Shown here: positions 27,147 through 64,000 of the stretch, one piece after another
Position numbering within the stretch: position 1 is the first letter of the stretch
How the letters are laid out: the number at the start of each line of letters is the position of its first letter
NCBI GenBank assembly: GCA_937960595.1
Contig: CALGPL010000038.1
Coordinates: 107-64,106, forward strand
Source of the DNA: an uncultured Anaerolineales bacterium
GTDB taxonomy: Bacteria; Chloroflexota; Anaerolineae; Anaerolineales; Villigracilaceae
Length of the DNA: 64,000 bases
Direction: 5' to 3'
Made by a program: the position numbers and the translations under genes
The notes under the pieces: model-generated
What the model was told of the DNA's origin: nothing
The model's input: only the letters and a program-made list of their open reading frames with translations
Databases searched by the model: none

Positions 27147-27147
27147 C

Positions 27148-31928: not shown

Positions 31929-33934
31929 CGCAGCGCCTCCTCGAGAATGCCTTCAATTTCGGCCATGATTTGCACTTCGGTAAAGCCGTTCTGGGTGGCT
32001 GCCCCGGCCGGACAGGCTGCCGCGCACGCTCCGCAGCCTTTGCACAGCACCTCGTTGACGTGCGCCACCAGCCGCCCGTTCTCTTGGCGCATTTCGATGG
32101 CGTGATAGGGACACAGCCCCTCGCAAGTGCGACAGCCGCCGCATTTTTCGGTCTGGATGAAGGTGGTGAACGGCTCGAGGAAGACCGAGCCGGCGTCCAT
32201 CAGCGAGAGCGCCGCGGCGGCCGCGGCCGCGCCCTGGGCGACGCTGTCGGGGATGTCCTTCGGCCCCTGGCAGGCGCCCGCCAGGAAGACGCCGTCGGTG
32301 GCCGTCTCGACCGGGGCCAGTTTGGGGTGCCGCTCGAGGAAGAAGCCGTCGGCGCTGCGGCTGACGCCGAACAGGACGCCGACCTGATGCTGGTCGGGCT
32401 GAGGCTCGGCGCCGGTGCTCAGGACAACCATGTCCACGAGCGTCTCGCGCGGTTTGCCGGTGTAGACATCCTCCATCAGGACCGCCAGACGCCCGTCATG
32501 CCTCTCGACGCGGATGCCCTGGTCGAAGCGGTAGAATTCGACGCCGTGCTGCTCGGCGCGTTCGTAGAAGGCCTCGTAGCCTTTGCCGAAGGCGCGCATG
32601 TCGCGGTAGAACTCGACCACCTCGGCCCCGACGTATTCGCGAATCATTTGGGCCAGTTTGAGCGAATACATGCAGCAGATGCGCGAACAGTATTCGTGCG
32701 GCCGGCCCTCGCTGACCGAGTCGCCGCGGCTGCCCACGCAGTGAATGATGGCGATCTTACGCGGCTTGCTGCCATCCTTGAGGCGCACCACGCCGCTGGT
32801 CGGCCCGCCGGTGTTGATGAGGCGCTCCATCTCCAGGCCGGTCAGGACGTTGTCGAGGAGGCCGTAGCCGTACTGGGGGGCGCGGCGCGGGTCGAAGGTC
32901 TCGTAGCCGGTTGCCAGGATGATGGCCCCGACTTCGATTTCCAGATGCTCTTCCTTCTGCTCGAAGTCAATCGCCCCGCGCGGGCAGAATTTCTCGCAGG
33001 CGCGGCATTTGCCGGTCTTGAAGTAGGCGCAGTTTTCGGTGTCTATGACCGGCACGCGCGGGATGGCCTGGGGAAAGGGCGAGTAGATGGCCGCCCGCGT
33101 CCCCAGCCCGAGGTCGAACTCGGAGGGGATTTTCTTCCAGGGGCATTTTTCGGTGCAGGTGCCGCAGCCGTTGCACAAATCCTCGCGCACGTAGCGCGGC
33201 TTGCGGCGCACGGTGACGGTGAAATTGCCCACGTAGCCGGCTACCGCCTCGACCTCGCTGTAGGTCAGCAAGGTAATGTTCGGGTGGTGGCCGACGGAGA
33301 CCATCTTGGGGGTCAGGATGCAGGCGGCGCAGTCCATGGTGGGGAAGGTCTTGAAGAGTTGCGCCATGTGCCCGCCGATGCTGGGCTGGCGTTCGACCAG
33401 ATAGACCTGCTTGCCGGCGTCGGCCAGGCGCAGGGCGGCCTCGATGCCGGTGATGCCGCCGCCGACCACCAGGGCAGCCTGTTTCAGACCCACCGAGCGG
33501 CTCTCCAGTTGGCGGTGATAGGCGACGCGATGGACGGCTGCCCCCACCAGCGACATGGCCTTGCGCGTGGCGGTCGAGCGGTTATCGGCAATCCACGAGC
33601 AATGTTCGCGGATGTTGGCCATCTGGAACAGGAAGGGATTCAAGCCGGCGTCGGCGCAGGCCTGGCGAAAGGTCGGCTCGTGCATCAGGGGCGAGCAGGA
33701 GGCGACGACGACGCGGTTCAGTCCCTCGCGCCGGATGTCTTCCTTGATGAGCGTCTGACCGGGGTCAGAACACATGTAGGTATAGTGGCGCGCCACGGCG
33801 ACATGCGGAAGCGTGCGGGCGTATTCGGTCACCGCTTCCACGTCCACGGTTGCGGCGATGTTGGTGCCGCAGTGACAAACGTAAACGCCCACGCGCGGCG
33901 ATTCCGGCGCAGGCGTCGGGCTATCGGGTTTCAT
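31925..33934 (-). CDS. hdrA: HdrA-like flavoprotein (canonical length, 669 aa)
   Basis: VYVCHCGTNIAATVDV...VVGGGITGIEAAL...MDCAACILTPK...HCVGSRG...YCSRICCMYSLK...CGGCRTCEGLCP...CKGCGACAAACP. The start is at MKPDSP (cat 33932-33934) with a GGAAGAGGG SD. Confidence 0.9.
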   Translation of the reverse strand: MKPDSPTPAPESPRVGVYVCHCGTNIAATVDVEAVTEYARTLPHVAVARHYTYMCSDPGQTLIKEDIRREGLNRVVVASCSPLMHEPTFRQACADAGLNPFLFQMANIREHCSWIADNRSTATRKAMSLVGAAVHRVAYHRQLESRSVGLKQAALVVGGGITGIEAALRLADAGKQVYLVERQPSIGGHMAQLFKTFPTMDCAACILTPKMVSVGHHPNITLLTYSEVEAVAGYVGNFTVTVRRKPRYVREDLCNGCGTCTEKCPWKKIPSEFDLGLGTRAAIYSPFPQAIPRVPVIDTENCAYFKTGKCRACEKFCPRGAIDFEQKEEHLEIEVGAIILATGYETFDPRRAPQYGYGLLDNVLTGLEMERLINTGGPTSGVVRLKDGSKPRKIAIIHCVGSRGDSVSEGRPHEYCSRICCMYSLKLAQMIREYVGAEVVEFYRDMRAFGKGYEAFYERAEQHGVEFYRFDQGIRVERHDGRLAVLMEDVYTGKPRETLVDMVVLSTGAEPQPDQHQVGVLFGVSRSADGFFLERHPKLAPVETATDGVFLAGACQGPKDIPDSVAQGAAAAAAALSLMDAGSVFLEPFTTFIQTEKCGGCRTCEGLCPYHAIEMRQENGRLVAHVNEVLCKGCGACAAACPAGAATQNGFTEVQIMAEIEGILEEALR

Positions 33935-34082
33935 ACGAACACCCTCTTCCTGGTGAGCACGAAAGTAATCCACACCTCGGCCACCTCCTTGGCGATGTTT
34001 GGTTACTTTACATTGTTGGTGTTTCCGAGGAGAGAAATCAAGTGATATTTGTCACAAAAAATAGGGAGAATCTGTAAGAACA

Positions 34083-36185: not shown

Positions 36186-38705
36186 TCAACGAGAGACACA
36201 CTGGCTGCCTGTCCAGTTGCACTGGTCTTTATGAGCGATGCAGGCGAAATAGTCGTACGCGGCGCATGGATCGGTCGGAGGGGTCACCGGCTCCGGCTCG
36301 GGCGGCGGTTCGGTGCTGCAGGATGGAATGGAAGCAATCCAGGCGGGGAAGTCGTCGAAGGATTGGCAGATCAAGCCGCCTCCATCGGGCTGGAGACACA
36401 ATTCGGCCCGGCCCGGATCGCTCCGCCGCGGGCCGGTGCAGTAAAGCCGGCCGGGGATCGTCGGGTGGACGCTGCATGAGTAAGAACCGATCTCGTCGCT
36501 GGCGGCATAGGTGTAGGCTGCTCCCGGCACCAGCCATGATAAGTCGGTGTCCACAATGAAATAAATGTTGACGTCATCGTGGCAACCCACAGCCACAATG
36601 CGCCAGGAGGCCCCTTCTTCTCCGGGCGGCGTTCCACACAGACTGACGTCGACCGTGCTATGCATTTCGGAGCCGTCTTCCAGGTACGCATCGAAGGTCA
36701 GCAAGGTCCCCGGATCGCCCGGCAAGCCCATGCACATGTAGTCGCAAGGCCCTACCTCTCTACAGGTGAGAGGCGTACCAGAAGCCTCGGCAAATACCAA
36801 GGCCGATTCGCATGGCTCATAGCGCAATTCGGCAGAAGGTTCATAAACAGGAAAACACACCCCCTCTAGGCTGAAACGCAACTCGGGCCTGTCGGGGCAG
36901 TCCATAATCGTGACCGGCCAGTCGCTGCAAGACCCGCCGCCGAGACAGACGGTGACGGTGACCGTACTCCCCGGCGTGTCGGGTATCTCGCAGAGATAGG
37001 AGACGGGGCTCATCTCCAGACAAGAGAGCGGAGCGCCGGCTATCGAGACGCTCTCCAGCGTGCTGCCCGGCAGCGTGTCGATAATCACGATCGGGTAAGA
37101 GGCCGGGAACACATCCCAACAGCCGGCGAACACCGCTAAGGGAGTGTCGGAGACGGGACAGTCATCTGGCACGGCGGCGACCGTCCACCAGGCGTAACTC
37201 GTGCCGCTGTCATCATGCCCTTGCATCTCGAACGAATACAATGCGCCAGGAGCGCGGCCCGGCAGAACGCAAAGCAGCGTCGAAGGAGAAGTCTGCGTGC
37301 AAGCCGCGTCGGTGTACAACATTCCGTCCAGGTATTGCACCCGTTCCCAGAGAATCGGCGGCGTTGAAGTAAAGGTCACCAAGACCGTCCCATCCACGTC
37401 GGACGGGCAACTCACCTCCACCCTGACGTCGGGCGGCCAGGCGCCAGCCGGGCAATCATGAGGCACCGGCGGGTGCCCGACCCCAAATGTGCTGCCCGGT
37501 TCGGTATAGACTTCCACATCGTAGAATGCCAGCAGGTCATTATCCGGCGGAATCGGCCCGTTGCATTGCAGACCGCGCAGGGCTTCATCGTAATAGCAGT
37601 CGAAGACCGTGCCGTTGACCTCAACCAGGAAAGTAGAAAGGCCTTCTGAACTATCCGCGCCGATGAAGAGGTACATGATCCCGGCCGGATCGGGACAGGA
37701 AACCAGAATCGGCCCAAACGAGGCCCAGGTTGTCCCCCGCGGCTCCTCCACCCGCTCTCCCCCCTCGTCCAAGCCGCTCGGCGGGACCCATTCGTGGTAG
37801 TCGGGCGGCGGGTAATATCCGTGCGGCAACGCTTCTCCCCCGGCCACGCAGCGGAAGCCAACATCATCATAGCCGCGGTGAGGATTGGCGCCCAGGCGGG
37901 TTGCGGCGCGCATTTGAACCGCCTCGGAGTACAGACCGCCGCCGCGCACCACTTTCAGATCGCCATAGTAAGGTCCCAGGGGGTTGATGGTCGGCGAGAG
38001 ATTATAGTAATCTTCGTCATACCAATCGTTCACCCATTCCCAAACGTTGCCGGCCATATCCCAGACGCCGTAAGGGCTGTTGCCCAAAGCATACGAGCCA
38101 ACCTGGACGGTATCGGCCGGCATCTGACAGCCGAACATGTTGACGCGGTTACAGGCCGGTTCGTCGCTCCCCCAGGGGTAGGGCCAACTCTCGGTCCCGC
38201 GCGCTGCCAGTTCCCACTCGGCCTCGCTCGGCAAGCGCCCGCCTGCCCAGAGGCAGTAATCATGCGCCATCAGCCAGTCCACGCCAGCCACAGGGTGATC
38301 GGCATAGGCAGGGTCGTCGTAGTGGGAGGTGGGGCCGCTCGGCAGGATGCGAATCGGAAGACAGGCGCCGGCATCTACACAGCGGGCATACATTTCACTG
38401 GTAACTTCATGGGTGTAGATGTAGAAACCGTTCAGCGCCACTTGATGACGAGGCGACTCATCGGCATCGGCCTGCGTGTCGGCCGGGTCGCTGCCCATCC
38501 AGAATCGACCGCCGGGAATGAGAATGGTCTCCGCCCCATCGGTGTTCGTCGGGCCGCTCGGAACGGTGGGCGTAAAATCATCGGCCATTCCTTCGGCAGT
38601 TCCTGTTCCTCTGCCGGTCCCCCCCGGCCAGTTGCAAGAGGCAAGCAACAAGATGAGGAGGAACAATACTGTGCTCCCAAACAGGAAGTACTTAGATTTG
38701 CACAT
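36186..38705 (-). CDS. Lipoprotein with an FGE-sulfatase (SUMF1/EgtB/PvdO-type) domain followed by five tandem Cys-patterned modules
   Basis: The lipobox is LLLLASC. The FGE-type domain reads IPGGRFWMGS...ESPRHQV.L..FYIY.HEVT...Y..C...G.C...HPV.GVDW..A..YC.WAGGRLPSEAEWE.AARG...YPWG...GV.DMAGNVWEWV.D.Y...Y...P..NP.GP..G...V.RGG. The repeats occupy ORF residues 357-820. Confidence 0.85.
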   Translation of the reverse strand: MCKSKYFLFGSTVLFLLILLLASCNWPGGTGRGTGTAEGMADDFTPTVPSGPTNTDGAETILIPGGRFWMGSDPADTQADADESPRHQVALNGFYIYTHEVTSEMYARCVDAGACLPIRILPSGPTSHYDDPAYADHPVAGVDWLMAHDYCLWAGGRLPSEAEWELAARGTESWPYPWGSDEPACNRVNMFGCQMPADTVQVGSYALGNSPYGVWDMAGNVWEWVNDWYDEDYYNLSPTINPLGPYYGDLKVVRGGGLYSEAVQMRAATRLGANPHRGYDDVGFRCVAGGEALPHGYYPPPDYHEWVPPSGLDEGGERVEEPRGTTWASFGPILVSCPDPAGIMYLFIGADSSEGLSTFLVEVNGTVFDCYYDEALRGLQCNGPIPPDNDLLAFYDVEVYTEPGSTFGVGHPPVPHDCPAGAWPPDVRVEVSCPSDVDGTVLVTFTSTPPILWERVQYLDGMLYTDAACTQTSPSTLLCVLPGRAPGALYSFEMQGHDDSGTSYAWWTVAAVPDDCPVSDTPLAVFAGCWDVFPASYPIVIIDTLPGSTLESVSIAGAPLSCLEMSPVSYLCEIPDTPGSTVTVTVCLGGGSCSDWPVTIMDCPDRPELRFSLEGVCFPVYEPSAELRYEPCESALVFAEASGTPLTCREVGPCDYMCMGLPGDPGTLLTFDAYLEDGSEMHSTVDVSLCGTPPGEEGASWRIVAVGCHDDVNIYFIVDTDLSWLVPGAAYTYAASDEIGSYSCSVHPTIPGRLYCTGPRRSDPGRAELCLQPDGGGLICQSFDDFPAWIASIPSCSTEPPPEPEPVTPPTDPCAAYDYFACIAHKDQCNWTGSQCVSR

Positions 38706-39099
38706 TTCACCCTCCCTTAGAGAGAAAAGAACCATTGACTTGATCGTTTTCTCGGCCTTACCTGCCGCGGGATTCAATCCCCGTCTCAGGGCTTGGCAGC
38801 CTGCTCAAAGGGCTGAGAGATGCATTGAGCCGCCTTCACCCTTCGGGTATAGGCAGGCGGCTTCTACGATCTCAGTCGGGGGGATGGAGCCCCCGCTGTT
38901 GGTTCAAAAGTGTCAGGGGCTAGAAAAGTATGATCCTTTTGCATTATATATCCTTACAGAATTGTAAAGCGTCCCCAATTTTTCCTAATTCTTCAAGGAG
39001 AGCATCGTCTATGCCGGCGCGTTCCAACTGCAGCCCGGCAGGAGCAGGAAAAGGGCAAAGAAGGCAGAATGGACACGTTTCACGCCGGGGAGGCAAATG

Positions 39100-52844: not shown

Positions 52845-52965
52845 GAGATGAACAGAGATAAACAGGTTTTGTCTCCGTTCATCTCCGTTTATCTCCGGTT
52901 TGTTCATCTCCGTTTATCCCCGGTTTGTTCATCTCCGTTTATCCCCGGTTTGTTTATCTCCGGTT
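52845..52965 (+). repeat. Family C, copy 4: an inverted arm plus three and a half tandem 25-nt units (two 10-nt TTYATC units plus ggttt)
   Basis: gagatgaacagagataaacagg is the inverted arm. Then gttcatctccgtttatcYccggttt repeats at 52877, 52902 and 52927, with a partial unit to 52965. Confidence 0.9.
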
Positions 52966-54680
52966 ACAAGTTCTTTCTGCCGCGCTTTGCGGCGCAGGTC
53001 TTTCTCCACGAAGAGCGGCTCGCCCGTGAACGGGTCGCGCTCGGTGTAGTACATCAGGCTGGAGTAAGTGGACGGGGTGGGGGTGAAGACCTGCACCTGT
53101 TCCGGGTGAATCTTGAGTTCGCGGCTGGCGAAGTGTTTGACCCGCTGCATGTCGGCCTCGCTGCAGCCGGGGTGGGCGGCGATCAGGTAGTAGGTCAGAA
53201 ACTGCCGCTTGCCCGCCTGGCGGTTCAGGGCGTCGAAGCGGCGCTTGAATTCCAGCAGGGATTGACTCCCCGGCTTGCCCATCAGCCCCAGGATGCGGTC
53301 GTCCACGTGTTCGGGGGCGACTTTGAGTTGCCCGGAGACGTGATGCGCCACCAGTTCGCGCAGGTAGGCGTCGCCGTGTTCGCGGTCGCACAGCAGCAGG
53401 TCGTAGCGCAGACCGGAGGCGACGAACACTTTCTTCACGCCGGGGATGCGGCGCACCTTCTTCAGCAGTTCGGTCTGCGGCCGGTGATTCACCGGCAGGA
53501 GCGGGCAGACTTCGGGGAAGACGCAGCGCTTGGCGGTGCAGATGCCCTTGGCGAGTTTCTTGGGGCATTCGAAGCCGTACATGTTGACCGTCGGGCCGCC
53601 CAGGTCTTGGATGTAGCCCTTGAAATCGGGGTGGCGCGTCAGGCGCTCGGCCTCGGCCAGGATGGACTCGGGGCTGCGCCAGCGGACGGTCGTCCCCTCG
53701 TGGACGGAGATGGCGCAGAAGTTGCACTCGCCGTAGCAGCCGCGGTGGGTGGCGATGGAGAAGCCGATGGTTTCGAGCGCCCTGACCCGGCCCTGCTGCT
53801 CGTAGAAGGGATGCTGGCGGCGCTCGAAGTCGAGGGCGTAGATGGCGTCCAGTTCGGCCTGCGTCTCGGTGAGAGCGGGCGGGTTCTGGACCAGGTAGCG
53901 GTCGGCGTGTTTCTGGGTGAGGCCGCGGGCGCTGACGGGGTCGTTGTTGCGGTAAAAGGTGTGGAACATCTGCGTGAAGGCTTCTTTGTCGGCGGCGACG
54001 GTCTCGTAGGCGGGCAGTTCCAGGTAGCCGGCGGGCGGCTCTTTGGCGATGTAGCACAGGCCGCGCACGCGGCGCGGGTCGCGTCCGTCGCGCAGACAGG
54101 CCGCCAGGTCCAGCACGCTGCGCTCGGCCATGCCGTAGAGGAGATAGTCGGCTTTGGCGTCGAAGAGAATCGAGCGGCGGATGGCGTCGTCCCAGTAGTC
54201 GTAGTGCGCCACGCGGCGCAAACTGGCTTCGATTCCGCCCAGGACGATGGGGGCGGCAGGTCCCCTCTCCCCTCGGGAGAGGGCGGAGGGTGAGGGGGCG
54301 GCTTTCATGAACCTGCGAATCAAATTGCTGTACACGATCGTCGCCCGGTCGGGGCGGCGGGTGTTCTCGCCGCCGGGGGTGTAGTCGTCCGAGCGGCGCT
54401 TCTTCTTCAGGGCGGTGTAGTTGGCGACCATCGAGTCGACGCAGCCGGCGGTCACGCCCCAGAAGAGGCGCGGCAGACCGAGGCGTCCGATGTCGCTCAC
54501 GTCCGAGACGTCCGGCTGGGCGATGATGCCGACGCGGTAGCCGGCGTTCCACAGCACCTTGCCGATGACCGCCGCCCCGATGAACGGGCTGTCAATGTAC
54601 GAATCGCCGGTCACCAGGATGACGTCGAGCGCATCCCAGCCCAGGCGGCGGACTTCTTCGGAGGTCGTCGGCAGGAACAT
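52929..54680 (-). CDS. ygiQ: YgiQ-family radical SAM protein (UPF0313)
   Basis: MFLPTTSEEVRRLGWDALDVILVTGDSYIDSPF...GGIEASLRR.AHYDYW...GCYGECNFCAI. The start is at M24 (cat 54678-54680). The last 12 codons lie inside repeat C copy 4. Confidence 0.9.
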   Translation of the reverse strand: MFLPTTSEEVRRLGWDALDVILVTGDSYIDSPFIGAAVIGKVLWNAGYRVGIIAQPDVSDVSDIGRLGLPRLFWGVTAGCVDSMVANYTALKKKRRSDDYTPGGENTRRPDRATIVYSNLIRRFMKAAPSPSALSRGERGPAAPIVLGGIEASLRRVAHYDYWDDAIRRSILFDAKADYLLYGMAERSVLDLAACLRDGRDPRRVRGLCYIAKEPPAGYLELPAYETVAADKEAFTQMFHTFYRNNDPVSARGLTQKHADRYLVQNPPALTETQAELDAIYALDFERRQHPFYEQQGRVRALETIGFSIATHRGCYGECNFCAISVHEGTTVRWRSPESILAEAERLTRHPDFKGYIQDLGGPTVNMYGFECPKKLAKGICTAKRCVFPEVCPLLPVNHRPQTELLKKVRRIPGVKKVFVASGLRYDLLLCDREHGDAYLRELVAHHVSGQLKVAPEHVDDRILGLMGKPGSQSLLEFKRRFDALNRQAGKRQFLTYYLIAAHPGCSEADMQRVKHFASRELKIHPEQVQVFTPTPSTYSSLMYYTERDPFTGEPLFVEKDLRRKARQKELVTGDKQTGDKRR

Positions 54681-54782
54681 GAGGTGGATTATAACGTGAA
54701 GGCCTACTTTGGGGGCGCGGATGCAGCCACACCGGCCTGATGATTGCAAGTCGGGCCGAATGAAAACGCCCGGCCTGTTCCT

Positions 54783-56774
54783 CTAGGCGAGGTTTTGGAC
54801 GCTCTCGAACAGTGCCTCGAACGGCGTGCCGCGCCGGTAGAAGGCGAGCGGCTGACCCAGTGGACAGGCGACGCGGTGCTTTCCGGCTCCAATCGGCTGG
54901 CCGTCGAACAGGCCGATCCATTCGCCCTCGGGGATTTCGATGCGCAGTCGTCTGGCTCCCGGACGCATAACCGGGAAGACGAGCAGATCGTCGCCGAGGA
55001 AATAGGCGTCGGCTTTGTTGTGCCAGCGAGGGTGGGCGTGGGCGAGGCAGAAGGGGCGCATCATGCCCAGACCGCTGCGCTGGGCCTCGTCCGAGACGTG
55101 TTTCAGATAAGGGGCCAGGGCGGCGCGCAGACGCGTCAGGCGGGCGAAGTGGGCCATCGTCTCGGCATCCTGCCAGGGCTGGACGCCTGCCCAGGGTCGG
55201 TTGCCCTCATGCGTGCGCAGGACGGGCGAGAGGGCGTTGGCCTCGCACCAGCGGAAGAAGACCTCTCGCGAACGTTTGATCCACTTGAACGAGAAATAGC
55301 CGCCGGCGTCGGTGTGGTAGTACTGGATGCCGGAAAGACAGGCGCTCAGCCCGCCGCGCACGCCGGAGGGGAATCCGTCGTGCCGGTTCCAGTAGACCAC
55401 CTGGTCGCCGCCCCAGATCATGTTCGTGAAACGGGTCGAGGCGGTGTAACCGGCGCGGTGGAAGATAAGCACTTCGTCTTGCAGACCGGCTTCCTCGACC
55501 GCCTGGCGGTTCAATTGCGCCCACAGGAGCGGGTAGAGATTGTGCATCTCGGCTCCGCTGCGTCCATCGTGGAAGCGGGCGTCTTCGGGGATGTCCTCGC
55601 CGTAGTCGGCCATCCAGCCGCGCATCCCCAGGGCGAGCATGTTCTTCTGGAGGATGTCTTCCTTGAACCAGCGCACGGCTGCGGGATTGGTCAGGTCGAG
55701 GATGCCGACCTGGAAGCCGGCGATGCTGGCGATGAGCGCTTCGCCGTCGGGGCCGCGCACCAGGTAGCCGCGTGCGCGGCTCAGGCGGAAGTAGTCGCTC
55801 TCGGCGTTGAAGTAGGGGTTGACGTAGGTCAGCCAGCGAATGCCCTGCTCGGCCCGCCGCCGGATTTCATCCGCCAGGCCGGGATAGAGTTCGGAATCGA
55901 CGATCCAGTTCCAGTACAGGCGCTTGCCCTGCCAGAAGATGCGCACGCCGGCCCAGTCCTGGGTCCAGATGCCGGTCAATTTTGCCCCGGCGGCCAGCAG
56001 GCGGTCCACCGTCTCGCCGACGTAGGGCAAGCCGCCCTGAATGCCGAGGATGCCGCCCTCGAAGACCCAGTCGGGCGGCGGCGGCATGAGGCCGGTCCGC
56101 TTGGCCAGTTTCCCGACCAGCGTTTGGAGGCTTTCTCCGCCGAAGAAGCGCAAGCGCGCCCCGGCCGGGACCTCCAGGCGGTGACGGTCGCGGGCGGTGA
56201 AATCCAGCACGCTGTAGCCGCCGGTCTCGATCAGGCAGCCGTAGCCGCGCGTCGAAAGGAAGGAGGGCTGCGGAAAGTAGGTGTTCCAGTACTCGCCGCC
56301 GGCGTCGGCGACCCAGTTGGCCAGCCAGGTGTAGGGCCGCAGGGGATGGCGGCCGAGGCCCATTTCACTCGTCCAGATGGGGAAGCGCCGCCCGCGCAGG
56401 TTCAAGGTCCCGAATTGCACCCCTCCGCCATAGACCGCCTCGCCGCGTGCGGCGGGCAGGTTCAGGCGGGCGCAGTTGAATCCCTGCGGGAGGTGGATGC
56501 GGAGGGTGAAACCGTCTGGCTCGGCCTCGAAACGCAGCGCGGCCTGCACTTCTCCCTCGAACAGGCGCAGACCGTCCGGCTGCGTCTCGCAGCCGCGCAG
56601 CGCCAGCCGGTTTTCGACCCGCTGGCGGATGCGGTGCATACCGCCGCCGGTGCTGTGGTAGTGAAAGTCGGCCTGTCCGATTTCCAGGAGCGGGCGGCCT
56701 GCCGTGTGGCGCAGAATCTCCAGGCCGTCGAGGTAGATGAAAGTGGCTCCCTCGCGGGTCTCGATCTCGAACAT
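54783..56774 (-). CDS. yihQ: GH31 glycosidase with sulfoquinovosidase (YihQ-type) signature residues
   Basis: 663 aa with IQGG, TQDWAGVRIFWQGKRLYWNW, GWMADYGE, WGGDQ and DAGGYFSF. Residues Q246/Q272/R285/W288/Y493 and D390/D457 sit at a constant 15-16-residue offset from the E. coli YihQ positions I recall (Q262/Q288/R301/W304/Y508, D405/D472). Confidence 0.7.
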   Translation of the reverse strand: MFEIETREGATFIYLDGLEILRHTAGRPLLEIGQADFHYHSTGGGMHRIRQRVENRLALRGCETQPDGLRLFEGEVQAALRFEAEPDGFTLRIHLPQGFNCARLNLPAARGEAVYGGGVQFGTLNLRGRRFPIWTSEMGLGRHPLRPYTWLANWVADAGGEYWNTYFPQPSFLSTRGYGCLIETGGYSVLDFTARDRHRLEVPAGARLRFFGGESLQTLVGKLAKRTGLMPPPPDWVFEGGILGIQGGLPYVGETVDRLLAAGAKLTGIWTQDWAGVRIFWQGKRLYWNWIVDSELYPGLADEIRRRAEQGIRWLTYVNPYFNAESDYFRLSRARGYLVRGPDGEALIASIAGFQVGILDLTNPAAVRWFKEDILQKNMLALGMRGWMADYGEDIPEDARFHDGRSGAEMHNLYPLLWAQLNRQAVEEAGLQDEVLIFHRAGYTASTRFTNMIWGGDQVVYWNRHDGFPSGVRGGLSACLSGIQYYHTDAGGYFSFKWIKRSREVFFRWCEANALSPVLRTHEGNRPWAGVQPWQDAETMAHFARLTRLRAALAPYLKHVSDEAQRSGLGMMRPFCLAHAHPRWHNKADAYFLGDDLLVFPVMRPGARRLRIEIPEGEWIGLFDGQPIGAGKHRVACPLGQPLAFYRRGTPFEALFESVQNLA

Positions 56775-56820
56775 GCTGCCTCCAAAGGACAGGACGGGCG
56801 TGGCAGCCCGTCCTGTGTTC

Positions 56821-58242
56821 TTATGCCTGCTTGCGGATGAAGAGCGCCGCGCCCGCCGACAGGAGGAACATGACGCCGAACATGGCCATCATCAACACGT
56901 AGCCGGACGAATCGGCGATCACGCCGCCGATGTAAGCGCCGATGGCGCCCGCCCCGGCCCCGGCCAGGTTCTGCAGCCCCAGGTATTCGCCGGCGCGCTC
57001 TTTGGGGATGATGTCGGTGCCGAGCGCCCAGGAGGCCACGTTGAACAGGGCATAGGCCAGGCCGATGATAGCGGCGGCCAGGTACATCAGCGGAATGTTC
57101 GGCCCAACGACCATCACGGCAACCCCGACCGCCCCGATCAGCCCGCTCAGGGAGGTCAATAGTTTGCGGTCGTAGCGGTCCGAGAGCCAGCCGGCGATCA
57201 GCCCGAAGAGGATGACGAAGCCGCCCAGCACCATCGGCAGCAGACCGGCCAGACCGGCAGCCTGCTGGCCCGGCAGGTCGAACTTTTCCTGGATGAAGTA
57301 GAGCAAGAAGGAAGCGATGTTATTGATGGCCACCAGCGCCGCCAGACGGCAGATGACCAGCCAGGTGAAGGACGGGTTCTGCAGGCTTTCCTTGCCCAGA
57401 TGAACGGTCAGGCTGGCGAAGATGCCTGCCACCACCGCCACCAACATCGCCACCACCCCGATGGCGCCGAAGGTGAAGCGCGAGGCGCCCTCCAGGGCCG
57501 GCAGGCTCAACTTGACGATTTGCCCCAGCCCGAGGATGATGAGGGTGAAGACGGCCGTCATCAGCACCAGGCTCAGGAACGGCTTCCAGTTCAGCGGGCC
57601 GGGGGCGGTCTTGGGGCGCTCCTCGCGCACCAGCATGGTCAGGCCCATGCAGATCAGCATGGCCACGACGGTCACCAGCAGGGCAGTCGGCAGATTGCCG
57701 CGGCTGACCATCGGGGCGATCACCAGCCCGACCAGCACCAGCGGCAGCGGCACCTCCAGCAGCATCTTGACGCCCGAGGCGATGCCGCGCTTCGGCTGCG
57801 GCACCACGTCGGGGATCAGGCCCTGCGTCCCCGCCTGAGAGAGGTTCGAGGAAACCATCGAGAGCAGATAGACGCCAAACAGGACGGCGTAGCCGGTCAT
57901 GCCCTCCAGCGCCGCAATCCAAGCCATGCTCAGGATCAGCCCGGCTTCCAGGATGGCTCCCAAGAAGATGAACGGTCGCCGGCGGCCCCATTTCAGCCGC
58001 GAGTGGTCGCTGAGCAGGCCGAAGAGGGCTTGCATCAGCAGGGCAGTCATCAGCGCCCACAGGCGGATGGTGCCGTAGTAGGTGCCTTTCTGCTCCTCGC
58101 CAACGAAGGTCTGCACCAGCAGCGGGACGACCAGCCCGGCCAGCACCTGCGAGCGCAAGGTCAGAGCGAACCAGTTGGTGTTGATGAAGAGGTAGTCGTA
58201 CCAGTGGAGTTTACGTTCGGGGGAGAGGACTTCGGCAGTCAT
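56821..58242 (-). CDS. MFS / GPH-family (glycoside-pentoside-hexuronide-like) sugar transporter
   Basis: 473 aa with about 12 TM helices. LSDHSRLKWGRRRPFI matches the GPH signature loop. Confidence 0.8.
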   Translation of the reverse strand: MTAEVLSPERKLHWYDYLFINTNWFALTLRSQVLAGLVVPLLVQTFVGEEQKGTYYGTIRLWALMTALLMQALFGLLSDHSRLKWGRRRPFIFLGAILEAGLILSMAWIAALEGMTGYAVLFGVYLLSMVSSNLSQAGTQGLIPDVVPQPKRGIASGVKMLLEVPLPLVLVGLVIAPMVSRGNLPTALLVTVVAMLICMGLTMLVREERPKTAPGPLNWKPFLSLVLMTAVFTLIILGLGQIVKLSLPALEGASRFTFGAIGVVAMLVAVVAGIFASLTVHLGKESLQNPSFTWLVICRLAALVAINNIASFLLYFIQEKFDLPGQQAAGLAGLLPMVLGGFVILFGLIAGWLSDRYDRKLLTSLSGLIGAVGVAVMVVGPNIPLMYLAAAIIGLAYALFNVASWALGTDIIPKERAGEYLGLQNLAGAGAGAIGAYIGGVIADSSGYVLMMAMFGVMFLLSAGAALFIRKQA

Positions 58243-58342
58243 GCGATTCTCCTTGTTTGGAAGAAATGACTTGCTCTGGCATGATTATATAAGAATTTTC
58301 GCTCGGCGAGTCTGATTCGGGCGGCTTTTTTGGCAGGCGGTA

Positions 58343-58475
58343 TAATAGGCTTTATTCGGAATCCTCGCCAAGACGCGCAGAACGCCAAGATGCCCGAAAA
58401 GGTTGTTGGGAAATGCCTTTGGCGGCCGAAATCCTTCCTGGTGTCTTTGCGCCTTGGCGGCGAAATGGACGCTTG
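58343..58475 (-). repeat. Family A dispersed element, copy 4 (inverted orientation), in the divergent promoter region
   Basis: The reverse complement reads ...ttcgccgccaaggcgcaaagacacc...ggccgccaaaggcatttccc...ttcgggcatcttggcgttctgcgcgtcttggcgaggattccgaataaagcctatta and aligns with 13008-13149. Confidence 0.8.
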
Positions 58476-58498
58476 CATCCCGCTCAGGGAGTCTTTTC

Positions 58499-59845
58499 AT
58501 GAAATATCGTTTGGGCTTCGTCCCGCTTGCCCGCCCGACCTTCGACATGCTTCTGGCCCGAGAAGTCGCCGCCGCCGCCCGCAGCCGTCTCGCCGCGGAC
58601 TTCGACCTGCTCGACCCGCTCGGGCGTGATCCTGGCTGGGAGTTGGTCACCGACCTCTCTGCCGCCCGCCTGGTCGCCGACTGGCTGAAGGACGAACCGC
58701 TCGACCTGCTGGTCGTCTTCCAGGCCACCTTTGCCGACAGCACCCTCGTCACCGCCCTGGCCGAGAAGGTGGACGCTCCGCTCTTCCTGTGGGCGGTCCC
58801 CGAAGCGCGCACGGGCGGCCGATTGCGGCTGAATTCGCTGTGCGGGGTCAATCTGGCGGCGCACGCCCTCAAATTGCGCGGCCAGAACTACGACTACGCC
58901 TATGCCGCTCCCGACTCTCCCGAAACGTCAGAGAAAATTCGGATTCTGGCCGCGGCCGGCAACGTCCGCCGCCGGCTGCGCGGCACCCGCCTGGGCGCGG
59001 TCGGCGATTCCCCGGCCGGCTTGGACTCCTGCGCCCTGGATGAATCCGCCCTGGCTGCCCTGGGCCTGGCGGTCGAGCGCCTCGACCTGGCGGAGGTCTT
59101 CGCCGCGGCGCGGGCGCAATCCTCGGCGTCCCTGACGGACCTGCGCGCCCGTTTGACCCCCCGCCTCGACGGCCTGGCCGAGGTGGAGCAGCCCGCCCTC
59201 CAAGGCTCGCTGGGGGCGACTCTGGCGCTCCGGCAGATGGCCGCCGAAAAGGGCCTGGCAGGCCTGGCCGTGCGCTGCTGGCCGGAATTTTTCACCGACC
59301 TGGGCTGCGCTGCCTGCGGAGCCGTCTCGCTGCTCAGCGACGAGGGCCTGCCTTGCTCGTGCGAGGCCGACATCAACGGCACGGTGACGCAATTGATTTT
59401 GCAGATGTTGAGCGGCGAACCGGCCATGGGCAGCGACCTGGTCGCGGTGGACGAGGCCGAGGACTGCGCCGTCCTGTGGCACTGCGGTCTGGCGCCGCTC
59501 TCGATGGCCGATCCGGCCGTCCGCCCGCGCGCCGGAATCCACTCGAATCGCAAGTTGCCGCTGGTGATGGAATTTGCCCTCAAGCCCGGTGTGGTGACCC
59601 TCGCCCGTCTGAGCCGCGCCGGCGGCACCCTGCGCCTGGTCATCGGACGCGGCGAAATGCTCTCCGCCCCGCCGTCCTTCTCCGGCACCTCCGGCGTCGT
59701 GCGCTTCGAACGGCCGGCGCGGGACGTGCTCGACCTCATCGTTTACGAGGGGCTGGAACATCATCTCTCGCTGACCTATGGCGACTATCTGGAGGAACTT
59801 CAGGCGCTGGCCCGCTTGCTGCGCTTGCCCGTTTTACATCTCTGA
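58499..59845 (+). CDS. L-fucose/L-arabinose isomerase-family (COG2407-like) aldose-ketose isomerase
   Basis: 448 aa. RCWPEF...GLPCSCEADINGTVTQLIL...WHCG matches the metal-site region of FucI/AraA-like proteins. The start is at the ATG at 58499. Confidence 0.75.
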   Translation: MKYRLGFVPLARPTFDMLLAREVAAAARSRLAADFDLLDPLGRDPGWELVTDLSAARLVADWLKDEPLDLLVVFQATFADSTLVTALAEKVDAPLFLWAVPEARTGGRLRLNSLCGVNLAAHALKLRGQNYDYAYAAPDSPETSEKIRILAAAGNVRRRLRGTRLGAVGDSPAGLDSCALDESALAALGLAVERLDLAEVFAAARAQSSASLTDLRARLTPRLDGLAEVEQPALQGSLGATLALRQMAAEKGLAGLAVRCWPEFFTDLGCAACGAVSLLSDEGLPCSCEADINGTVTQLILQMLSGEPAMGSDLVAVDEAEDCAVLWHCGLAPLSMADPAVRPRAGIHSNRKLPLVMEFALKPGVVTLARLSRAGGTLRLVIGRGEMLSAPPSFSGTSGVVRFERPARDVLDLIVYEGLEHHLSLTYGDYLEELQALARLLRLPVLHL

Positions 59846-59861
59846 CTGTTTTGGAGGAACG

Positions 59862-60524
59862 ATGAAGTTTTTTCTCGATTCTGCCCGTCCCGACGAAATC
59901 CGCTACGCCATGGATTTTCTGCGAATCGACGGCGTGACGACCAACCCGCGCCATGTCCAGGCGGCCGGCAAACCTTTCCTGACTACCCTGGGCGAGATTG
60001 CCCGCCTGGTGGAGGGCCGCCCGCTGACCGTCTCCGTCGAGGTCAATCCGCACCACGCGCAGGCGGAAGACATGGCCGCCGAGGGCCACAAACTGGCCGC
60101 GCTCAGCCCGAACTTTGTCATCAAGTTGCCTGCCACCGAAGCCGGTTTCAAGGCCATCGTTTTGCTCAAAGAACGCGGCATCCGCGCCAACCTGACGCTG
60201 GTCTTCTCGGCCGTCCAGGCCTTGCAGGCCATGCGTTTGGGCGCTTTCTACGTCTCGCCGTTCATCGGCTGGAAGGAGGCCAACGGCGAGCCGACGGTGC
60301 AACTCATCGAGGAGATCGCGGCCATCCGCGATCAGTACGGATTCACAACCGAGATCATTGTCGCTGCCCTGCGCAACGGCCGGCAGATCGTCGAGGCGGC
60401 AGTCGCCGGGGCCGATATCGTCACCGCCGGGCTGGCCGTCTATCAGGAGGCGCTCGATCATCCGTATACGCGCGACGGCTTGCGCAAGTTCCAGGAATTC
60501 TGGGACAAGACGCCCTACGAATAA
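59862..60524 (+). CDS. Type-3 transaldolase / fructose-6-phosphate-aldolase family protein with an altered phosphate-binding motif
   Basis: MKFFLDSARPDEI...IDGVTTNP...FVIKLP (Schiff-base Lys)...NLTLVFS...YVSPFIGWKEANG. GGAGG SD at 59853. Confidence 0.85.
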   Translation: MKFFLDSARPDEIRYAMDFLRIDGVTTNPRHVQAAGKPFLTTLGEIARLVEGRPLTVSVEVNPHHAQAEDMAAEGHKLAALSPNFVIKLPATEAGFKAIVLLKERGIRANLTLVFSAVQALQAMRLGAFYVSPFIGWKEANGEPTVQLIEEIAAIRDQYGFTTEIIVAALRNGRQIVEAAVAGADIVTAGLAVYQEALDHPYTRDGLRKFQEFWDKTPYE

Positions 60525-60583
60525 CCGCCGGATCCCGGACGAAAAACGCCGGTTTGGCTATTTTGATCACAAGGAGGCATTCC

Positions 60584-60871
60584 ATGAAATATGGCATTCT
60601 CATGCACGAACCCCACGATGACGTCGGGGTGGCGGTGATGGACCTGACCGCCGGTTCCGAGGTCGGCGCGGCCACGCTCGAAGGCCAGCCGGTCGGGACC
60701 CTGACCCTCGCCGAGGACATTCCCCTCGGCCACAAAGTCGCCCTGCGCGACCTGACAGCCGGGCACAAGGTGCTCGAATACGGTCGGCCGATCGGCGCGG
60801 CGACCCAGGACATCGTCCGCGGCGCGCACGTCCACGTCCACAATCTCAAGACGCTGAGGTGGTCGAAATGA
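60584..60871 (+). CDS. SAF-domain small subunit of a split UxaA-family dehydratase. Candidate (2R)-sulfolactate sulfo-lyase alpha (SuyA-like).
   Basis: 95 aa. [11 protein letters not shown].......G......[23 protein letters not shown]...I..G.HVHVHN is a SAF/UxaA N-terminal domain. AAGGAGG SD. Confidence 0.6.
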
Positions 60872-62031
60872 CTCTCCCCGACATTCCCCTGTTCGCGTAC
60901 CGCCGTCCCAACGGCAAGATCGGCATCCGCAACCATGTCGTCATCCTGCCGGTGGACGACATTTCCAACGCGGCTGCGGAGGGCGTCGCCCGCCTGATTC
61001 GCGGCACGATTGCCCTGCCGCATCCCTACGGCCGTCTCCAGTTCGGCCCCGACCTCGACCTGACCTTCCGCACCCTGATCGGCGCCGGCCGCAACCCCAA
61101 CGTCGCCGCCGTGGTGGTCATCGGCATCGAACCCAATTGGACCGCCAAGATCGTCGCCGGCATCGCCGAGACCGGCAAGCCGGCCGCCGGTTTCAGCATC
61201 GAGCGCGCCGGCGACTTGAAGACCATCGAGGCCGCCGCCCGCAAGGCCCAGGAGTTCGTCCAGTATGCCACCGAATTGCAGCGCCAGCCGGTCGCTTTCG
61301 CCGAGATGACCTTCTCGACCAAATGCGGCGAGTCCGACACGACCAGCGGCCTGGCCTCCAATCCGACGGTCGGGCGCGCCTTCGAGCGCCTGGAGGCCGC
61401 CGGCGCCACCCTCATCTTCGGCGAGACGACCGAGGTCACCGGCGCCGAGGACAAGATCGCCGAACAGTGCGCCACGCCCGAAGTGCGCGCCGAATTCTTG
61501 CGCCTCTTCCAGGCCTATCAGGATTTCGTCAATTCGGTGGATGCCGACCTGCTCGGCTCCCAGCCGACCCAGGGCAACATCCGCGGCGGGCTGACCACCA
61601 TCGAAGAGAAAGCCCTCGGCAACGTCGAGAAGATGGGACGCTGCACCATCCGCTCGGTCTTGCAGCCGGCCGAGGAACCCAAAGGCCCCGGCCTGCATTT
61701 CATGGACTCTTCCAGCGCAGCGGCCGAGATGGTGACCCTCTGCCTGGCGGCCGGTTCGGTGGCGCACTTCTTCACCACCGGGCAGGGCAACGTCATCGGC
61801 AATCCGCTCCTGCCGGTCATCAAACTCTCGGCCAACCCGCTGACGGTGGCGACCATGTCCGAGCATATCGACGTCGATCTGACCGGCTTGCTGCGTTTCG
61901 AGATCAACCTCGACCAGGCCGCCGATCTGGCGCTGCACATGCTGGCCCGCACCATCAACGGCCGCCTGACCGCCGCCGAAACCTTGCGTCACGATGAATT
62001 CGTCCTGACCAAACTCTATCGCAGCGCCTGA
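60868..62031 (+). CDS. Large subunit of a split UxaA-family dehydratase. Candidate sulfolactate sulfo-lyase beta (SuyB-like).
   Basis: 387 aa with an ATGA overlap with the small subunit. It reads [10 protein letters not shown]...[14 protein letters not shown]...[12 protein letters not shown]...[17 protein letters not shown]...HFFTTGQGN. Confidence 0.6.
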
Positions 62032-62070
62032 CGGATTCTGCCTGTTCGACCGACCTGAGGACGGTCGCTT

Positions 62071-63339
62071 GTGGCTTCCACCTACATCCTTCCCTACGGG
62101 AAGACCTCTCTGACCTTCGGCCTGCCTGCCGGGCGGACGGCCGACCTGCTTCTGCCGCGGCCGTCTGCCCCGGCCCCCGACCCGGCGGCGGCCGTCCGGG
62201 CCGCCCTCGACAGGCTGCTGGGCGGAGTCCGCCTCGAGCAGTTTGGCGGGGTTCGTTCGGCGGCCGTCGCCGTCAACGACAAGACCCGCCCGGTTCCCCA
62301 TGCCCTTCTGCTGCCGCCGCTGCTGGCGCGGCTGGAGGCCCTCGGCCTGCCGCCCCAGGCGATTACCCTCTTGGTCGCCACCGGCCTGCATCCGCGCATG
62401 GAGGCGGACGAATTCGCTGCCATCCTGCCGGAGGAGGTCCTGCGCCGCTATCCGGTGGTCTGCCATGACGCCCGCGACCCGTCCGGCTTGGTTGAAGTCG
62501 GCGTGACGCGGCGCGGCACGCCCGTCTGGGTCAACCGCCGCTACCTCCAGGCCGACCTGCGCCTGGCGGTCGGCAACATCGAGCCGCATCAGTTTCAGGG
62601 ATTTTCGGGCGGCGTCAAGAGCGTGGCCATCGGGCTGGCGGGCGAAGCGACCATCGTCCGCAATCATGCCTGGATGCTCGACCCGGCCGCTCGCCTGGGC
62701 GAGTACGAGACCAACCCGGCCCGTCAGGATGTCGAGGAAATCGGGCGCCTCATCGGCGTCCACTTTGTCTTGAATGCCATTCTGAACGGCAAGCGGCAGA
62801 TCGTGTCCGTCCTGGCCGGCGAACCGGAAGCGGTGATGCGCGCCGGCATTCCGCTGGCGCGGCGCCTGTCCGAGGTCCAGGTCACCGCGCCCTATGACCT
62901 GGTCATCGCCTCGCCTGGCGGTCATCCCAAGGATATCAACCTCTACCAGGCGCAGAAGGCGCTGGCCCACGCCGCCCTGCTGACGCGGCCGGGCGGGACG
63001 GTCCTTCTCGCCGCCGCCTGCCCCGAAGGGACGGGCAGCCCGGAGTACGAGGCCTGGGCGCGTCAATGCACCTCGCTCGAACAGGTGGTGGAACGTTTCA
63101 TGACGGAGGGATTCCGCATCGGCCCGCACAAGGCCTATCAGATCGCCCGCGACGCCCTGCGCCTGAACCTGCTCCTGGTCTCGGACATGCCCGCCTCCTT
63201 TGTCCGCTCGCTTCTGCTGACCCCGGCCGATTCGCTCGAAGCGGCGCTGACCCAGGCGCTGACCTCTCTGCCGCCCGCCGCGCGGATTGCCGTCCTGCCG
63301 CACGCCGCCTCGGTGATTCCACCCTCGGGATTGTCCTAA
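62071..63339 (+). CDS. LarA-family nickel-pincer-nucleotide-dependent 2-hydroxyacid racemase/epimerase homolog
   Basis: 422 aa with a GTG start. NDKTRP (D70/R73), ATGLH107, EPH173QFQGFSGGVK183, RNH199 and YQAQK lie within one residue of the L. plantarum LarA positions I recall (D72/R75, H108, H174, K184, H200, Y294-Q295-K298). Confidence 0.85.
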   Translation: MASTYILPYGKTSLTFGLPAGRTADLLLPRPSAPAPDPAAAVRAALDRLLGGVRLEQFGGVRSAAVAVNDKTRPVPHALLLPPLLARLEALGLPPQAITLLVATGLHPRMEADEFAAILPEEVLRRYPVVCHDARDPSGLVEVGVTRRGTPVWVNRRYLQADLRLAVGNIEPHQFQGFSGGVKSVAIGLAGEATIVRNHAWMLDPAARLGEYETNPARQDVEEIGRLIGVHFVLNAILNGKRQIVSVLAGEPEAVMRAGIPLARRLSEVQVTAPYDLVIASPGGHPKDINLYQAQKALAHAALLTRPGGTVLLAAACPEGTGSPEYEAWARQCTSLEQVVERFMTEGFRIGPHKAYQIARDALRLNLLLVSDMPASFVRSLLLTPADSLEAALTQALTSLPPAARIAVLPHAASVIPPSGLS

Positions 63340-63351
63340 GGAAAAATGTCC

Positions 63352-64000
63352 ATGATTTATCTCGATTATGCCGCCACCACGCCCGTGGACGAACGCGTCT
63401 TCGAGGCGATGCGCCCCTTCTTCAGCGAAACGTTCGGGAACCCGTCCTCGGTTCACCGCTACGGACAGCGCGCCGAGGCGGCGGTGGACGAGGCGCACGA
63501 GACCGTCGCCGCCGTCCTGAACTGCCGCCCGGACGAAATCATCTTCACCTCCTGCGGCTCGGAATCGGACAACCTGGCCCTGCGCGGCGCGGCCCTGGCC
63601 AGGCGCGAGCAGACCGGCGCGGACCGGATTCTGACCAGCCGCGCCGAACATTCCGCCGTCAGCAAGACCGCCGCCGACCTGGAGCGGCATTACGGCTTCC
63701 GCGTCGAGTGGCTGCCGGTGGATGAATTCGGCCGCATCACGCCGGAGACGGTGGCGCAGGCGCTTGACGGGGAGACGGCCCTCGTCTCGGTCATGTATGC
63801 CAACAACGAAATCGGCACGCTCAACCCGATCGCCGAAATCGCCGCCGTCTGCCGCGCCCGCGGCGTCCCCTTCCACACCGACGCCGTGCAGGCGGCGGCC
63901 TACTTGCCGCTGGACGTGCAGGCTCTGGGCGTGGATTTGCTCTCGCTGGGCGCGCACAAGTTCTACGGCCCGAAGGGCGTCGGCGCCCTCTACGTCCGCG
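63352..64000 (+). CDS. Cysteine desulfurase (NifS/IscS class V aminotransferase), 3-prime truncated by the window end
   Basis: [16 protein letters not shown]...FGNPSS.H..G...........R...A..L.C...EIIFTS.GSESDN...NNEIGT...HTDAVQA...[13 protein letters not shown]. Confidence 0.9.

Follow-up and report, generated by a model that had tools for sequence, protein, structure and literature searches.

Phototrophs make vast amounts of sulfoquinovose, and its degradation to sulfite or sulfide is a major branch of sulfur cycling and of hydrogen sulfide formation in the gut. The locus analysed here raises the question of how a bacterium might hand the product of this breakdown to a desulfonating lyase that accepts only the opposite stereoisomer. 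It lies in a 64,000-nt stretch of DNA, referred to below as the window, from an uncultured Anaerolineales bacterium (contig CALGPL010000038.1 of assembly GCA_937960595.1, positions 107 to 64,106), and comprises a gene for a homologue of the lactate racemase LarA that follows genes for a lyase resembling SuyAB. According to the literature, (S)-sulfolactaldehyde derived from sulfoquinovose yields (S)-sulfolactate and SuyAB is (R)-specific, so that racemisation is needed; the known remedy is an opposing pair of dehydrogenases, SlcC/ComC, acting through sulfopyruvate. A preliminary description of this DNA had noted both the mismatch and the remedy, had proposed a one-enzyme sulfolactate racemase of the LarA type instead, and was not aware of such an enzyme having been shown. 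Our full-text literature search, in which Liu et al. 2020 (BBRC) was not covered, likewise found no paper linking LarA to sulfolactate or sulfoquinovose.

We consider it likely that the gene encodes a 3-sulfolactate racemase that depends on the nickel-pincer nucleotide cofactor (NPN) and feeds SuyAB. The homology, the residues, the predicted fold, the operon and the conserved gene neighbourhood were established directly; we infer what the enzyme acts on, in which direction the flux runs and that the cofactor is present. The substrate assignment and the pathway role are new, while the family, its fold and chemistry and the neighbourhood, which was tabulated in 2020, were already known.

A LarA homologue with a complete active site

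The gene in question is the following.

62071-63339, plus strand: LarA homologue of the LarAH5 group, candidate NPN-dependent (S)/(R)-3-sulfolactate racemase (422 aa)

This open reading frame (ORF) starts with GTG, has a Shine-Dalgarno-like GAGGA motif 8 nt 5' of its start, and shows a G+C fraction at third codon positions of 0.86, like the true genes of this contig with its 65% G+C. Pfam assigns it the domains Lar_N (PF09861, E = 2.7e-54) and LarA_C (PF21113, 8.5e-18). The nearest solved protein is the broad-spectrum lactate racemase LarA of Isosphaera pallida (9eia, 3.6e-77), followed by the malate racemase Mar2 (6d6z, 2.7e-70) and the lactate racemases of Thermoanaerobacterium (2yjg, 8e-56) and Lactiplantibacillus plantarum (5huq, 1e-47). 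An AlphaFold2 model of the window protein has a pLDDT of 91, and Foldseek aligns it to 9eia and 5huq_A with TM-scores of 0.92 and 0.93, respectively. With homology at about 1e-77 and this predicted fold, the protein is a full-length LarA homologue and no chance motif match.

The two catalytic histidines of the family are H107 and H173 in the window protein (H108 and H174 in L. plantarum), and the cofactor positions K183, H199, D70 and R73 correspond to K184, H200, D72 and R75. The carboxylate and the 2-hydroxyl group would be bound at R73, Y292, Q293 and K296, the last three of which belong to the motif Y292-Q293-A294-Q295-K296 that aligns with Y294, Q295 and K298 of L. plantarum. In the substrate complex of I. 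pallida LarA, Arg73, Gln295, Lys298, His107, His173 and Tyr294 hold these groups (PMC11851776). H107 and H173 are invariant in 21 aligned homologues, as are all other catalytic and cofactor-binding residues, both in those homologues and in a clade of 67 members described below; the carboxylate-binding residues likewise do not vary within the clade. The residues listed in the preliminary description (D70, R73, H107, H173, K183, H199 and YQAQK) are thus all present as read and aligned to L. plantarum LarA; the agreement within one residue that it reported holds for the histidines and the lysine (offset 1), whereas D70, R73 and the YQxxK motif are offset by 2.

LarA is the last gene of a sulfoquinovose cluster

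The genes on the 5' side of LarA are listed below; for several of them the start adopted here lies downstream of the mechanical ORF start.

54783-56774, minus strand: GH31 (glycoside hydrolase family 31) sulfoquinovosidase of the YihQ family (663 aa)
56821-58242, minus strand: divergent transporter of the major facilitator superfamily (MFS), probable importer of sulfoquinovose or sulfoquinovose glycosides (Pfam MFS_1, MFS_2)
58499-59845, plus strand: sulfoquinovose isomerase, SftI/SqvD-like (about 448 aa; mechanical ORF start 58403; Pfam Fucose_iso_C)
59862-60524, plus strand: 6-deoxy-6-sulfofructose transaldolase (220 aa; mechanical ORF start 59778; Pfam TAL_FSA)
60584-60871, plus strand: SuyA-like small subunit (about 95 aa; mechanical ORF start 60554; Pfam SAF, 2.5e-07)
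60868-62031, plus strand: SuyB-like large subunit, (2R)-sulfolactate sulfo-lyase (387 aa; mechanical ORF start 60859; Pfam GD_AH_second and GD_AH_C)

The plus-strand junctions are short or overlapping: the end of the SuyA-like ORF overlaps the start of suyB, and 39 nt separate the SuyB-like ORF from the LarA gene. The SuyAB-like lyase that the preliminary description placed directly 5' of LarA was found there as a pair of SAF and GD_AH proteins. Such a two-subunit lyase has the SuyA/SuyB architecture, an assignment made from domains and homologue names. SuyA orthologues in two of the most closely related loci (L001 and L086, see below) measure 95-97 aa; for SuyB, a database protein of 100% identity has 387 aa, JGI labels close homologues '(2R)-sulfolactate sulfo-lyase subunit beta', and the sole solved relative is galactarate dehydratase (6u7l, 1e-30).

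The remaining enzymes point to sulfoquinovose as well. The best solved match of the transaldolase is the sulfofructose transaldolase of Bacillus megaterium (8bc3, 4.3e-72, versus 1e-43 for ordinary transaldolases). The GH31 enzyme passes the NCBIfam model PRK10426 (651 bits, cut-off 553) and matches the YihQ sulfoquinovosidases 5ohy and 5aed at about 1e-150, versus 1e-40 for other GH31 enzymes. The isomerase scores 300 bits against the NCBIfam model NF048012 'sulfoquinovose isomerase', under its cut-off of 700, and is hence called only SftI-like; its orthologues have 448-451 aa. The position of the MFS transporter is kept in L001, L086 and L087. Judged by these sequence matches, this is a genuine sulfo-transaldolase sulfoquinovose cluster with LarA as its last gene. 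No dehydrogenase gene occurs within the cluster (54783-63339), so that no SlcC/ComC pair stands beside SuyAB. A terminator scan gave no more sites than in shuffled sequence and was uninformative on operon ends.

SuyA, SuyB and LarA stay together across four phyla

Among the candidates scored, 3352 LarA homologues were found at E <= 1e-30. A scan with one genome per species gave 467 relatives, of which the best 80 (55-89% identity) were taken with 10-kb flanks. Neighbouring ORFs were called and clustered, recurrent clusters were named by Pfam, and the counts were redone by tblastn, for a total of 81 non-redundant loci from different species. The nearest homologues, 84-89% identical and with the same gene order, come from metagenome-assembled genomes (MAGs) of Chloroflexota (89% in GCA_019873655.1). 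Most related loci belong to Anaerolineae or other Chloroflexota, and the others to Opitutae and other Verrucomicrobiota, one Planctomycetales MAG and one Acidobacteriota MAG.

In 50 of the 81 loci SuyB is found at most 3 kb from LarA, and in 30 it lies no more than 300 nt upstream of it; in three further loci SuyA or SuyB is cut short by the end of the contig. Forty loci contain sulfofructose transaldolase, 19 a GH31 glycosidase and 25 a GH4-like glycosidase. Genes for aldehyde:ferredoxin oxidoreductase (AOR) were counted in 21 loci, for aldehyde dehydrogenase (ALDH) in 17, for a YeiH-type membrane protein (PF03601) in 23, and sulfite-reductase-like genes in five. The combination SuyA-SuyB-LarA recurs in sulfoquinovose clusters of Chloroflexota, Verrucomicrobiota, Planctomycetota and Acidobacteriota, and it stays together while the gene order around it shuffles across lineages. 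As the order is shuffled and the three genes nevertheless remain linked, their retention is, at the level of sequence, a signature of functional coupling beyond shared descent alone.

A second link to the (2R) series comes from four loci without SuyAB (L072:82-10737 on the plus strand, L015, L026 and L074). In these, LarA ends a cluster that contains ComA, a member of the (2R)-phospho-3-sulfolactate synthase family, together with a YeiH-like membrane protein, a PGK-like protein (PF00162), PFK, a Cgl0159-type aldolase, a GH4-like glycosidase and a 335-aa protein with no Pfam, NCBIfam or PDB match. A GAPDH-like protein is also present in L072, the sole ComA locus checked for one. SuyAB and ComA both handle the (2R) series and LarA is their common partner; judged from gene content, this is a second, independent link of LarA to (2R)-configured sulfolactate. 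In gene content the ComA clusters resemble a lower glycolysis adapted to sulfonates, in which reverse ComA would finally yield phosphoenolpyruvate and sulfite. No description of such a GAPDH-like/PGK-like/reverse-ComA sulfonate route was found in the literature search.

The protein belongs to the LarAH5 group

Next, we focused on the place of the protein in the LarA superfamily. The comparison set consisted of the group 4, 5 and 6 sequences of Dataset S1 of Desguin et al. 2020, together with solved LarAs rebuilt from HMMER alignments. Identity to the window protein was 46% for ANT_14630 of Anaerolinea thermophila, 44% for Moth_1926 of Moorella, 38% for Sar of I. pallida, 37.6% for Mar1 (Dhaf_4417), 34.5% for Mar2 and 29.6% for L. 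plantarum LarA. In a neighbour-joining tree with 200 bootstraps, the window protein's 67-member clade is sister to ANT_14630 (90%), and both join group-5 sequences of Desulfovibrio, Desulfomicrobium and Desulfomonile (100%). The next branches, Mar1 and Moorella, are weakly supported (54%), as are the deep nodes of group 5 in general (23-58%). The NCBIfam model NF052595 'nickel-dependent malate racemase, LarAH5 family' is passed with 539.3 bits against a cut-off of 462; the model of the LarAH6 malate racemases is not reached (412.6 bits, cut-off 500), and the lactate racemase and LarAH10 models also score below cut-off. By sequence, the protein belongs to the known LarAH5 group and forms no new one.

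The group-5 signature is found in full: Q174 (Q or H after the second catalytic histidine), G351-x-H353-K354 and the aromatic Y356. The window protein's residues at the four specificity positions are Q174, F175, H353 and K354, where I. pallida has L, M, W and Q and L. plantarum has F, F, W and T. Group 5 differs from the proven malate racemases in having Q or H rather than Y at 174, V, A or S rather than R or H at 182, and an aromatic rather than a small residue at 356. In a superfamily survey of 2024, whose tested substrates included no sulfonate, H/Q and K at the sites equivalent to L. plantarum W358 and T359 served to mark malate racemases, and this lysine was proposed to bind the distal carboxylate. 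The residues of the window protein would line a pocket suited to a small dianionic 2-hydroxy acid such as sulfolactate, the sulfonate isostere of malate.

Mar1 of Desulfitobacterium hafniense (PMC7583248) resembles the window protein in its subgroup, in passing the family model, in its group-5 position in the tree, in a neighbour of the COG2721/SuyAB family and in the signature D-R-H-H-Q-F-K-H...Y-Q-x-Q-K...G-x-H-K-x-Y; it differs in overall sequence and at residue 71, which is M in Mar1 and K in the window protein. Mar1 was reported as a malate racemase, whereas the window gene sits in a sulfoquinovose operon, which points to sulfolactate. ANT_14630, the closest published group-5 sequence, has the D-K-T-R and GGVK motifs in common with the window protein and differs in having H after the catalytic His173 position, where the window protein has Q. 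Mar2 (LarAH6; 6d6z, 7s91) has the same fold, catalytic set and H-K pair for the distal anionic group, but is 34% identical and has Y at 174, a small residue at 356 and H, not V, at 182. K71 was considered as a general sulfonate binder and rejected: it is invariant in the window clade, but is Glu in SuyAB-adjacent members related to Desulfovibrio and Met in Mar1.

Mar1 is the only assayed group-5 member, and carboxylic hydroxy acids were its only substrates (Desguin et al. 2020, PMC7583248). On L-malate it has a Km of 55 mM and a kcat/Km of 0.39 s-1 mM-1, about 500-fold below Mar2 (Km 0.38 mM, kcat/Km 185 s-1 mM-1), and its authors noted that malate is possibly not the native substrate. Table S1 of the same study gives COG2721 'altronate dehydratase' as the top group-5 neighbour (100%), followed by TctC/TctA transporters, and includes malic enzyme among the neighbours of group 6 (Mar2). 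COG2721 is the UxaA/SuyAB family, and SuyA and SuyB upstream of LarA in the window agree with that group-5 trait; the link between group 5 and COG2721 was already tabulated in 2020, without being read as SuyAB. In addition, Burrichter et al. reported suyB in D. hafniense, Desulfomicrobium baculatum and Desulfomonile tiedjei, and all three species carry group-5 LarA homologues. We lean, with somewhat less confidence than for the window gene, towards the view that the whole LarAH5 group including Mar1, hundreds of genes from Chloroflexota, Thermotogae, Verrucomicrobiota and sulfate- and sulfite-reducers, consists of nickel-pincer sulfolactate racemases that serve SuyAB and possibly the GAPDH-like/PGK-like/reverse-ComA route. 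If true, this would give the LarAH5/Mar1 group its native substrate, left open by its discoverers, and would correct the curated name 'malate racemase'.

Proposed pathway and mechanism

In the proposed pathway, the GH31 sulfoquinovosidase would release sulfoquinovose, which the isomerase would convert to sulfofructose and the sulfofructose transaldolase to (S)-sulfolactaldehyde. An enzyme encoded outside the cluster would oxidise this to (S)-sulfolactate. The LarA homologue would then convert the (S) to the (R) form, and SuyAB would cleave (R)-sulfolactate to pyruvate and sulfite. By family homology, NPN would be covalently tethered to K183 with its nickel ligated by H199, and H107 and H173 would alternate as acid and base, shuttling the hydroxyl proton. 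While R73, Q293, K296 and Y292 hold the carboxylate and the 2-hydroxyl group, the C2 hydride would pass to C4 of the pyridinium, leaving enzyme-bound sulfopyruvate, and return to the opposite face. The sulfonate would probably sit at H353-K354, the second-carboxylate site of the malate racemases, with the group-5-specific Q174.

The SlcC/ComC pair of Chromohalobacter salexigens (Denger and Cook 2010, as cited in later work) achieves the same net conversion of (S)- to (R)-sulfolactate via sulfopyruvate and also feeds SuyAB. It does so with two NAD(P)-dependent enzymes of unrelated families, free sulfopyruvate and diffusible nicotinamide cofactors, whereas with LarA the hydride would stay within one enzyme, on a tethered nickel-pincer cofactor. 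A racemase of this kind would be a mechanistically different, one-protein alternative to the only described solution, and appears widespread in anaerobes. If true, this would make it the first sulfonate racemase to consist of a single enzyme, and would supply the missing stereochemical step by which anaerobes pass (S)-sulfolactate derived from sulfoquinovose to (R)-specific desulfonation. Extended sulfo-transaldolase clusters are also known from Thermotogae and from Chloroflexi, where Liu et al. 2020 first noted SuyAB (as reviewed in PMC9594981); they likewise combine isomerase, sulfofructose transaldolase, sulfoquinovosidase and SuyAB. They differ from the window cluster in that the latter is without a sulfolactaldehyde dehydrogenase, and the 2022 review (PMC9594981) names no racemisation step and no LarA homologue for them.

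Evidence against a sulfolactate racemase

Several observations weigh against this assignment. The family model whose curated cut-off the protein passes bears the name malate racemase. No gene for a sulfolactaldehyde dehydrogenase (PF00171) or AOR is present in the 64-kb window, nor in the clusters of the 84-89% identical orthologues L001, L086 and L087. A search for the NPN biosynthesis genes larB, larC and larE, which covered the window (64 kb of a 64.6-kb contig) and the related loci, gave none in the former and none that recurs among 148 unlabelled neighbours in the 81 loci. About 13 related loci with full 10-kb flanks have no sulfonate genes near LarA. In two Opitutae MAGs (L037:5199-6395 and L044:8790-9986), a gene between SuyB and LarA encodes an Ldh_2 (ComC-family) dehydrogenase. 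The idea that LarA and ComC/SlcC dehydrogenases strictly exclude each other, which we considered, fails on these two loci; Ldh_2 accounts for only 3 of the 148 unlabelled neighbours. In the 84% identical locus L086, LarA is followed by nifS, a PDDEXK_3 gene and mnmA (tRNA thiouridylase MnmA), of which nifS and mnmA are housekeeping genes; as the PDDEXK gene and MnmA come after NifS there, the sulfoquinovose cluster ends with LarA. Finally, sulfite inhibits L. plantarum LarA reversibly and competitively, and its adduct with the cofactor of that enzyme has been described (literature and PDB titles). As SuyAB makes sulfite, the enzyme would have to tolerate the product of its own pathway, and an NPN enzyme working beside a sulfite-producing lyase poses a chemical puzzle.

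The one-enzyme racemase of the preliminary description is thus strongly favoured by the recurrence of SuyA-SuyB-LarA in four phyla, and is weakened by the malate-racemase cut-off and by the lack of an aldehyde dehydrogenase in the cluster. Of the outcomes that it had named as refuting, tight grouping with a LarA clade of other proven specificity is seen in part: the protein falls in a group named after malate, but the one assayed member is only 38% identical and works poorly on malate.

Alternative functions

The first alternative is a racemase of malate, or a racemase or epimerase of another C4 dicarboxylic hydroxy acid (tartrate, 2-hydroxysuccinamate), in which case the adjacency of SuyAB would reflect a non-sulfonate lyase activity or coincidence. 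The NF052595 score, the racemisation of malate by Mar1 in vitro and the H353-K354 pair common to the proven malate racemases speak for it. However, the Km of Mar1, its roughly 500-fold lower kcat/Km and the doubts of its authors speak against it, as does the identity of only 38% between the window protein and Mar1. The neighbourhoods also differ: genes of the Mar2 group adjoin malic enzyme rather than COG2721, and the gene studied here has a sulfoquinovosidase, a sulfoquinovose isomerase and a sulfofructose transaldolase as neighbours, with no malate or tartrate genes in the cluster. We regard this alternative as unlikely.

Another sulfonated 2-hydroxy acid could be the substrate, either through C2 epimerisation of a sulfo-sugar acid or as a phosphorylated or coenzyme A derivative of sulfolactate. 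The LarA superfamily does include sugar-acid 2-epimerases such as the gluconate 2-epimerases, and some related loci have an APH-like kinase gene and a GFO/IDH/MocA oxidoreductase between SuyB and LarA. But no sulfo-sugar acid arises in the transaldolase route, the pocket carries the signature of malate racemases, suited to a small C4 dianion, and lacks the E-V-A-H signature of gluconate epimerases, and the common denominators of the neighbourhood, SuyAB and ComA, are both specific for C3 sulfolactate derivatives. This makes such a substrate highly improbable.

We give still less credence to a racemase of lactate or short-chain 2-hydroxyacids downstream of SuyAB, which would form D-/L-lactate from the released pyruvate for redox balance in fermenting Chloroflexota. 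Pyruvate is indeed the product of SuyAB, and among solved structures the I. pallida enzyme, a broad-spectrum lactate racemase, comes closest in both sequence and fold. However, the pocket (Q174, F175, H353, K354) differs from those of I. pallida and L. plantarum, the tree puts the protein in group 5 and not in groups 1 or 2, and the cluster contains no lactate dehydrogenase or lactate permease. That the gene is inactive or its product cofactor-less, in a genome without NPN biosynthesis, would fit the missing larB, larC and larE, but is scarcely credible: the invariant catalytic and cofactor residues of the 21 homologues and the 67-member clade argue for purifying selection on a working NPN site, and larA homologues frequently have no lar biosynthesis genes beside them, as in group 5, where these are not among the recurrent neighbours.

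Other genes of the related loci

Several other genes recur in the related loci. In about 21 loci, AOR and a small ThiS/MoaD-like gene follow LarA (e.g., L053:11300-14500, L073, L077, L069), and a Peptidase_M24/creatinase-like gene often precedes that AOR (about nine loci). The AOR of these loci is likely an oxygen-sensitive sulfolactaldehyde oxidase. A threonine-synthase-like enzyme of the pyridoxal-phosphate-dependent type (PF00291), which bears a zinc-ribbon-like CxxC motif at its N-terminus, is encoded between SuyB and LarA in L007 and L017 and after LarA in L012 and L048; by analogy with cysteate synthase, it may react sulfite with a phospho-amino acid.

In about nine loci (L003, L014, L019 and others), SuyB and LarA are separated by genes for a kinase-like protein and a GFO/IDH/MocA oxidoreductase. 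The former has weak APH/EcKL matches in precomputed annotation and none in the Pfam scan; the latter could be an NAD-dependent sulfoquinovosidase-type enzyme. A GH4-family glycosidase (PF02056/PF11975) takes the place of the GH31 sulfoquinovosidase in the 25 loci counted above (e.g., L008:5658-7052), which suggests an NAD-dependent sulfoquinovosidase of the GH4 type.

Other features of the window

A gene for a NifS/IscS-type cysteine desulfurase (63346-64000, plus strand, to the window end) begins 6 nt past the LarA stop. A role of the NifS-like gene as sulfur supplier for NPN synthesis by a [4Fe-4S] LarE was considered and rejected (MnmA follows in L086; absent from the other 78 loci). NifS and MnmA are probably a housekeeping pair for tRNA thiolation, outside both the sulfoquinovose cluster and NPN synthesis. 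An ORF of 1178 aa on the minus strand (60421-63957), antisense to SuyA, SuyB, LarA and NifS, was discarded as a high-G+C artefact, as its G+C content peaks at codon position 1 and not 3.

On the other side of the cluster, between rpoC and the sulfoquinovosidase, lies a gene for a YgiQ-type radical SAM protein (52929-54749, minus strand; Radical_SAM_N, Radical_SAM and DUF3362). Its position is kept in the 84-89% identical orthologous loci, and it has no evident link to the cluster. The remaining genes of the window encode SecA, aconitase, 2-oxoacid:ferredoxin oxidoreductase, fumarase, an Hdr/Mvh-like complex, a ClpB/ClpC-type AAA+ chaperone, GyrA and RpoC. Two further regions on the minus strand are unrelated to the LarA finding: genes for FlpD/MvhD-like and heterodisulfide-reductase-like proteins and a large FAD/NAD(P) iron-sulfur oxidoreductase at 26145-33973, and a gene at 36186-38777 for a secreted protein of 863 aa, the N-terminal part of which resembles, by eye, a formylglycine-generating-enzyme (SUMF1) domain.

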